NCBI RefSeq assembly: GCF_003334335.1
Contig: NZ_QOWQ01000057.1
Length of the DNA stretch: 17,995 nt
Source of the DNA: Escherichia coli
Lineage (GTDB): Bacteria; Pseudomonadota; Gammaproteobacteria; Enterobacterales; Enterobacteriaceae
Reading direction: 5' to 3' (one strand)
Positions within the stretch are counted from its first letter, which is position 1; each line of letters starts with the position of its first letter. The notes below the pieces were generated by a model. The model ran no database searches. It was not told the DNA's origin and worked only from the letters and a program-made list of their open reading frames with translations. Below are positions 10,475 through 12,195 of the stretch, one piece after another. The position numbers were made by a program, and so were the translations under genes.

Positions 10475-11131
10475 ATGGCTTATGATTACAGCGCCAGCCT
10501 CAACCCGCAAAAAGCTCTGATCTGGCGTATCGTCCATCGGGACAATATCCCGTGGATTCTGGATAACGGGCTGCACTGCGGCAACAGTCTGGTGCAGGCG
10601 GAAAACTGGATCAATATCGGCAACCCGGAGCTGATCGGCAAGCGTGCCGGGCATCCGGTACCTGTCGGAACGGGCGGGACACTGCATGACTATGTGCCGT
10701 TTTATTTTACCCCCTTCTCGCCAATGCTGATGAACATCCACAGCGGGCGCGGCGGCATTAAGCAACGCCCCAATGAGGAGATCGTTATTCTGGTCAGCAA
10801 CTTGCGAAACGTGGCAGCACACGACGTACCCTTCGTGTTTACCGACAGCCATGCTTACTATAACTGGACCAACTACTACACCAGTCTGGATAGTCTGGAC
10901 CAGATCGACTGGCCCATTTTGCAGGCACGGGACTTTCGCCGCGATCCAGACGATCCGGCTAAATTTGAACGCTATCAGGCAGAGGCGCTAATCTGGCAAC
11001 ACTGCCCGATCTCTCTGCTGGATGGGATAATTTGTTACAGCGAAGAGGTCAGGTTACAATTAGAACAATGGCTGTTTCAGCGTAATCTAACAATGTCCGT
11101 TCACACACGGGCTGGATGGTACTTCTCATGA
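10475..11131 (+). CDS. darT: DarT-like ssDNA ADP-ribosyltransferase toxin (DUF4433 family), 218 aa
   Basis: Size and sequence character match DarT as I remember the family ([27 protein letters not shown]..., [15 protein letters not shown]). Sits immediately upstream of a macrodomain gene with an ATGA stop/start overlap. SD AAGGGAAA precedes ATG 10475. Family assignment is by recognition and context, not a search. Confidence 0.78.
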
Positions 11132-12195
11132 TCACATATACACAAGGCAATTTACTGGACGCACCGGTGGAAGCTCTGGTGAATACGGTTAATACCGTCG
11201 GTGTCATGGGGAAAGGCATCGCGTTGATGTTTAAAGAGCGCTTCCCCGAAAATATGAAAGTCTATGCCCTCGCCTGCAAACAAAAGCAGGTGATCACCGG
11301 CAAAATGTTCATTACCGAAACCGGGGAACTGATGGGACCGCGCTGGATTGTTAATTTTCCGACCAAACAGCACTGGCGCGCTGATTCCCGCATGGAGTGG
11401 ATTGAAGATGGCTTGCAGGACTTACGCCGCTTTTTGATTGAAGAGAACGTGCAGTCCATCGCCATTCCACCACTGGGCGCAGGCAACGGTGGTTTGAACT
11501 GGCCGGACGTTCGGGCGCAGATTGAATCTGCCCTTGGCGACCTTCAGGACGTTGATATCCTGATTTACCAACCGACTGAAAAATACCAGAACGTTGCCAA
11601 AAGCACTGGCGTAAAAAAGCTCACTCCCGCCAGAGCCGCCATCGCTGAACTGGTGCGTCGCTACTGGGTATTGGGGATGGAGTGCAGCCTACTGGAAATC
11701 CAGAAACTGGCCTGGCTGTTACAACGCGCCATTGAGCAGCATCAACAGGACGATATCCTCAAACTGCGGTTTGAAGCTCACTATTATGGCCCCTATGCGC
11801 CCAATCTGAACCATCTGCTTAATGCGCTGGACGGCACCTATCTTAAAGCCGAGAAACGCATCCCGGACAGCCAACCGCTGGATGTGATCTGGTTTAACGA
11901 TCAGAAAAAAGAACACGTTAATGCGTATCTGAACAACGAAGCCAGAGAGTGGCTACCTGCGCTGGAGCAGGTCAGCCAGTTAATTGACGGCTTTGAATCG
12001 CCGTTTGGTCTGGAGTTGCTGGCAACCGTAGACTGGTTGCTGAGCCGTGGCGAATGTCAACCAACGCTGGATTCCGTTAAGGAAGGGCTGCACCAGTGGC
12101 CTGCGGGCGAACGCTGGGCCAGCCGTAAGTTGAGGCTGTTTGATAATAATAATCTGCAATTTGCCATTAACCGCGTAATGGAGTTCCATTGCTGA
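11128..12195 (+). CDS. darG: DarG-like antitoxin with N-terminal macrodomain (ADP-ribosyl hydrolase), 355 aa
   Basis: [40 protein letters not shown] is a classic macrodomain N-terminus with the Gly-rich loop. ATG 11128-11130 overlaps the darT stop TGA 11129-11131. The ORF-track start at 11116 adds four residues. Confidence 0.8.

Follow-up and report, generated by a model that had tools for sequence, protein, structure and literature searches.

The gene pair at 10475-12195 of the window (the whole 17,995-nt stretch of Escherichia coli DNA analyzed here) almost certainly encodes a DarTG2 toxin-antitoxin module and, judged by its sequence, is a near-copy of the system studied in EPEC E2348/69. 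A DarT toxin with a macrodomain-type DarG antitoxin had been proposed for this position by a sequence-only reading; the two open reading frames were found exactly there (Table 1), and both products scored above the cut-offs of the respective family models. The 4-nt overlap described in that reading was recovered as well, with ATGA in TTCTCATGATCAC combining the darT stop codon (TGA, 11129-11131) and the darG start codon (ATG, 11128-11130). Chance matches are not an issue for either gene, given family E-values of 1e-53 to 1e-135 and 100% DNA identity to annotated darT and darG. No feature of the sequence speaks against the assignment.

DarT was matched by the Pfam DarT family (PF14487, DUF4433) over residues 17-217, covering the full model (E = 3.4e-53), by the NCBIfam equivalog NF048013 (toxin_DarT; 262.6 bits against a cut-off of 150) and by the PADLOC DarT model (E = 1.9e-74). 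Searches against the PDB returned the Thermus DarT structures of the 7omv series (E = 1.6e-26) and M. tuberculosis DarT (7yk3_A; E = 2e-15). To number the active site, residues were mapped through the alignment with the Thermus DarT structure, in which the chain index equals the native number plus one (confirmed on five residues). The catalytic set is intact: Thermus R51, H65, Y71, M78, H119 and E160 correspond to R57, H71, Y77, M84, H126 and E170, respectively, in the window protein. Residue roles, among them those of the catalytic glutamate and the DarT-specific arginine (R51 of Thermus), follow PMC9967889. The NAD-contacting H13 of Thermus DarT is replaced by R18 in the window protein; since the window and EPEC proteins are the same at that position, R18 is also present in the active EPEC DarT.

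The second gene had been said to open with a macrodomain rather than a NADAR domain, and the peptide quoted for it corresponds to residues 2-40 of DarG. This description held: Pfam Macro was matched over residues 18-129 (E = 4.5e-21), and no NADAR domain was found in a Pfam scan of the antitoxin. DarG was also recognized by NCBIfam NF048014 (antitoxin_DarG; 451.2 bits against a cut-off of 250) and by the PADLOC DarG model (E = 1.4e-127). Over residues 1-152 the alignment with the macrodomain of Thermus DarG (5m31; E ~1e-55) is gapless, and residues 1-150 align to that of M. tuberculosis DarG (5m3i; E = 1.5e-53). Further downstream, residues 183-351 matched DarG as solved in complex with DarT from M. 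tuberculosis (7yk3_B; E = 5.4e-13), and the Pfam scan gave a weak SocA_Panacea match at residues 191-274. Residues 1 to ~150 are predicted to form the macrodomain (an ADP-ribosyl-DNA glycohydrolase) and residues ~183-351 the DarT-binding C-terminal domain. N22, K29, K80, H82, W83 and G119, whose roles were described by Jankevicius et al. (2016, PMC5179494), are all kept, with the same numbering as in Thermus DarG. Structures from Thermus and M. tuberculosis match both proteins, and the catalytic glutamate (E170 of DarT) and the macrodomain, on which the earlier proposal had let its case depend, are both retained, the latter with its K80.

Three darG starts are in circulation, giving products of 359 amino acids (aa) (ATG 11116, in some GenBank entries), 355 aa (RefSeq and UniProt) and ~329 aa (M27). 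The start at 11128 was adopted because alignment with the macrodomains of Thermus and M. tuberculosis then begins at residue 1 and RefSeq places the start there too; those at ATG 11116 (359 aa) and M27 (329 aa) were dropped in its favor. The K54 of Lawaree et al. implies numbering of DarG from M27 and is K80 here (80 - 26 = 54).

DarTG2 systems are defined by a macrodomain antitoxin and a thymidine target, and DarTG1 systems by a NADAR antitoxin and a guanosine target (Schuller et al. 2023, PMC11543638). By that definition the predicted darT-darG pair is DarTG2, the thymidine class, because its antitoxin carries a macrodomain and NADAR is absent, and the step from macrodomain antitoxin to the DarT2 class taken in the sequence-only reading agrees with it. 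The toxin of DarTG1 does belong to the same DarT superfamily, and DarTG1 is likewise a toxin-antitoxin module with an anti-phage role, but nothing beyond this general family membership favors a guanosine-specific system of the DarTG1 type, or a DarT with some other base specificity. We regard either as extremely improbable: the antitoxin in the window is a macrodomain protein; the DarT-like PDB chains recovered at E ≤ 10 (only Thermus DarT, M. tuberculosis DarT and a DarT-macrodomain fusion) are all thymidine-class or macrodomain-linked; and the EPEC enzyme, 98.6% identical to the window DarT, requires TTT/TCT. No DarT1-type chain was returned by the PDB search at E ≤ 10, a result that has to be read together with the uncertain DarT1 content of the PDB copy used.

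Comparison with EPEC was made against an O127:H6 locus (L003), whose hsdS-darT stretch matches the E2348/69 chromosome (NC_011601.1) at 100% identity. DarG (WP_000634203.1) and the M48 protein (WP_001122107.1) are identical to their E2348/69 counterparts, and these two accessions are listed for EPEC E2348/69 by Zhang et al. (NAR 2025, PMC12255303). The same two RefSeq proteins are found in strain NCTC86, in which darTG is exactly as in the window. DarT is identical to the E2348/69 protein at 215 of 218 positions (98.6%), the window allele having Q97, D139 and A213 where E2348/69 has R, N and S; none of the three is a mapped catalytic residue. The module is therefore not new, as had been stated at the outset, with an identical DarG and a DarT differing at so few positions.

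The EPEC pair has been studied experimentally. EPEC DarT ADP-ribosylates single-stranded DNA (ssDNA) at TTT/TCT and blocks replication, an E170A variant is nearly without activity and a G49D variant is attenuated, while the macrodomain of EPEC DarG (K54) removes the modification and its C-terminal domain sequesters DarT (Lawaree et al. 2020, PMC7003065). G49 is kept in the window DarT. More distant is the DarTG of Thermus aquaticus and Thermus sp. 2.9 (PMC5179494; 7omv-7on0, 5m31), which shares the fold family, the catalytic set and thymidine-ssDNA ADP-ribosylation with macrodomain reversal. EPEC and T. aquaticus DarT are, however, only 29.5% identical and differ in motif preference (TTT/TCT for EPEC, TNTC for Thermus; PMC7003065), in addition to the exchange of H13 for R18 noted above. 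In the M. tuberculosis system (Rv0059/Rv0060; 5m3i, 7yk3), the macrodomain, the DarG C-terminal domain and DarT all align with the window pair. The M. tuberculosis sequences are nevertheless distant from those of the window. The M. tuberculosis pair also differs in its setting, which we take to be next to dnaB and not inside a restriction operon.

If the window proteins behave as those of EPEC do, DarT would use NAD+ to place ADP-ribose onto thymidine in TTT/TCT motifs of ssDNA, and the modification would stall replication and prove toxic. DarG would neutralize the toxin in two ways, its N-terminal macrodomain (K80) stripping the ADP-ribose from DNA and its C-terminal domain binding and sequestering DarT. 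We infer that the window copy has the same activity and would be transcribed together with the restriction genes from an RptR-repressed promoter at ~6345-6388. Upon phage infection, DarT may escape DarG, and the resulting ADP-ribosylation of DNA would provide an abortive-infection layer behind restriction. That the pair is instead an inactive remnant, decayed and passively carried along with the restriction genes, might be considered in a neighborhood rich in IS fragments and pseudogenes. Such decay is very improbable here, as neither open reading frame is truncated, every catalytic residue mapped has been kept, DarG does not differ from the active EPEC protein, and 244 of 250 matching records have a best match of 99% identity or more.

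The module lies within a larger set of genes (Table 1). Seven open reading frames occur in the order rptR-hsdM-hsdS-darT-darG-hsdR-M48, which is that of the RRDM (RptR-RMS-DarTG-M48) defense island of EPEC E2348/69 described by Zhang et al. (PMC12255303) when the layout is compared with E2348/69-type loci. Spacing is tight throughout: rptR and hsdM are separated by 39 nt, hsdM and hsdS overlap by 1 nt, hsdS ends 12 nt before darT (at 10462), darT and darG share the 4-nt overlap, 18 nt separate darG from the TTG start of hsdR (12214), and hsdR and the M48 gene overlap by 1 nt. With the rptR open reading frame, the promoter and operator elements and the gene set all matching PMC12255303, the window contains, at the level of sequence, the complete published RRDM island. 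Gene content, order and spacing agree with E2348/69, and HsdR (1027/1031 positions), HsdM (793/812) and RptR (76/79) are nearly identical to the E2348/69-type proteins. In the same study (PMC12255303), E. coli carrying the EPEC island on pBR322 was protected from several phages, and hsdM was induced >15-fold upon phage infection.

Table 1. Predicted features of the RRDM island, with positions in the window
Feature	Position	Strand	Evidence
Island promoter and RptR operator	6345..6388	+	Sequence match to elements of PMC12255303; alignment with E2348/69-type locus
rptR, 79-aa repressor, first gene of the island	6411..6650	+	76/79 identical to E2348/69-type RptR
hsdM, type I methyltransferase subunit, 812 aa	6690..9128	+	PADLOC MTase_I, 1426 bits, full length
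hsdS, specificity subunit, 444 aa	9128..10462	+	PADLOC Specificity_I, E = 3e-131
darT (DarT2), ssDNA thymidine ADP-ribosyltransferase toxin, 218 aa	10475..11131	+	Pfam, NCBIfam, PADLOC, PDB
darG (DarG2), antitoxin, 355 aa	11128..12195	+	Pfam Macro, NCBIfam, PADLOC, PDB
hsdR, type I restriction endonuclease/translocase subunit, 1031 aa, TTG start	12214..15309	+	PADLOC REase_I, 1636 bits
M48/YgjP-like (SprT-like) predicted zinc metallopeptidase, 238 aa, last gene of the island	15309..16025	+	Homologue with Pfam YgjP-like

The putative promoter upstream of rptR consists of a -35 box, TTGAAC (6345-6350), followed 14 bp further on by the -10 sequence AGCTAATTT (6365-6373). Over the latter lie direct repeats with a 9-bp period, TAGCTA at 6364-6369, TAGCTA at 6373-6378 and TATCTA at 6382-6387. 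According to Zhang et al. (PMC12255303), the island promoter has a TTGAAC -35 box, a functional 5' -10 box and 6-bp palindromes (TAGCTA and variants) that bind RptR over the -10 region, and RptR is reported to repress this promoter when the E2348/69 island is carried on pBR322. Window and E2348/69 agree in the -35 box, the 5' -10 box and the TAGCTA operator repeats, and at least two RptR-binding palindromes over the -10 box, the number given in the published criterion, are found in the window by sequence match. TAGCTA is not enriched across the window (4 found against 2.6 expected), and the only meaningful signal is its tandem 9-bp arrangement at the promoter, which agrees with the published site in position and spacing. 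RptR itself shares a 90% cluster with B7UP23_ECO27, has a homologue with Pfam HTH_73 and is named an HTH-like domain protein in RefSeq; its gene has an alternative in-frame ATG at 6405.

Operator copy number differs between loci. The window (6362-6388) has two TAGCTA units and TATCTA, a predicted binding variant, the E2348/69-type locus (L003:9940-9985) has three TAGCTA units and TATCCA, and three further loci (L002, L004 and L006) combine two TAGCTA units with TATCCA. The window operator is therefore one 9-bp repeat shorter than that of E2348/69 and ends on TATCTA rather than TATCCA. The number of operator repeats might tune the strength of repression between strains. Within 5400-16700, a consensus scan gave 13 promoter-like sites against 14.1 expected, which is chance level, and 17 terminator-like sites against 11.9 expected, which was taken as chance level; an Rfam scan of the window placed no RNA family within the island. 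A single transcription unit of seven genes is the simplest reading and a probable one, drawn from gene spacing only (gaps of at most 39 nt, or overlaps).

The location of the pair inside the hsd operon had been singled out in the sequence-only reading as its notable part. The location itself is confirmed, with darTG between hsdS and hsdR, but it is not notable: it has been known since PMC5179494 and PMC12255303, and is ordinary. The occurrence of DarTG inside type I operons was pointed out in general terms in 2016 by Jankevicius et al. (PMC5179494), who raised crosstalk or stabilization of the locus as possible explanations, and this very arrangement in the E. coli island was described and tested by Zhang et al. 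(PMC12255303). Across complete E. coli genomes, darTG DNA was found in 249 of 5426, in many of them 100% identical to annotated darT and darG, and the NCBI pipeline names both genes in matching genomes. Since the literature already covers the module and its nested position as well as its biochemistry and regulator, the discovery value is low. As a calibration point it is of use, the DarTG2 pair having been rightly recognized from raw sequence.

What the nesting means can be weighed in several ways. The module might be a genuine DarTG2 pair that serves mainly as an addiction cassette, stabilizing the hsd operon against loss, and not as a phage-triggered abortive-infection system, an alternative raised by Jankevicius et al. 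for DarTG in type I operons (PMC5179494). Consistent with this, of the 249 darTG genomes, 248 have the hsdS-darT junction covered over at least 80% and every one has the darG-hsdR junction covered, while hsdS specificity varies, and in NCTC86 hsdM is frameshifted with darTG intact. Set against it are the phage defense conferred by DarTG2 upon transfer into E. coli (as cited in PMC11543638) and the protection against several phages afforded by the whole EPEC island (PMC12255303), and we consider addiction unlikely as the main role. The two roles are compatible and not mutually exclusive, and anti-phage activity of a DarTG2 module remains the preferred reading.

A stronger proposal, which appears quite doubtful, is that nesting reflects functional wiring, the seven genes forming one two-layer sensor-effector circuit. 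DarT would then be freed only upon disablement of the type I enzyme, as a phage anti-restriction protein might bring about, or alternatively upon cleavage of DarG or RptR by the co-encoded M48 peptidase. In a weaker form, DNA ADP-ribosylation may interplay directly with Hsd methylation or translocation, as speculated by Jankevicius et al. (PMC5179494). Zhang et al. (PMC12255303) also describe other cargo in the same hsdS-hsdR slot of other Gammaproteobacteria, and this varied cargo suggests a recombination hotspot.

All three type I subunits are present as uninterrupted open reading frames with full-length PADLOC matches, and HsdM (TIGR00497 hsdM, 282.8 bits) and HsdR (TIGR00348 hsdR, 546 bits) also scored above the NCBI model cut-offs. 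HsdS is the exception to the close agreement with E2348/69. The longest hsdS open reading frame begins at GTG 9122 and the RefSeq start is 9128, giving proteins of 446 and 444 aa in the window against 453 aa in E2348/69, and the two alleles agree at only 185 of 484 aligned positions, with flanking genes 97-100% identical and an hsdS GC content of 0.41. This divergence and the drop in GC indicate a putative swap of target-recognition domains in which darTG was retained. As HsdS differs from the E2348/69 allele, restriction specificity would differ as well. The M48 gene had no PADLOC or NCBIfam model match.

An additional, very divergent DarT-family open reading frame of 191 aa lies between hsdS and the normal darT in one comparison locus, from another E. 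coli strain (L006:14021-14596; GCA_036291175.1, JAUPPJ010000004.1). It is 20% identical to DarT, with a PADLOC DarT E-value of 5e-34 and an NCBIfam score of 45.7 bits against the cut-off of 150, and no second antitoxin gene was called beside it.

On the left, the window carries an Ag43/GTPase island segment and a 314-aa gene where E2348/69 has IS elements. With the HsdS allele and the shorter operator, this flank makes up the local differences from E2348/69, all of them minor. The 314-aa hypothetical gene (4468-5412, minus strand; GC ~0.41) lies between the GTPase gene and rptR, and gave a sub-threshold GIY-YIG hint only (E = 0.017) and no defense-family match. In two other loci (L002 and L005) its slot is filled by an Mrr_cat-like gene on the opposite strand, so that cargo at this position next to the island seems to vary. 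Farther left, the Rfam scan matched the IS102 (IsrC) sRNA at 3026-3262 on the minus strand (67.8 bits); the match lies in the leader of the gene for the Ag43/Cah autotransporter (161-3007, minus strand), upstream of it, and such a placement is usual for this E. coli segment. NCTC86, the best-matching genome, has an extra ISCro1 insertion of ~4.4 kb at the right flank in addition to its frameshifted hsdM, and the window is free of both. The right flank of the window itself (16100-17995; comparison locus L008:19368-22689) is IS debris, made up of an IS3 fragment followed by IS66-family tnpA (16606-17043) and tnpB (17040-17390).
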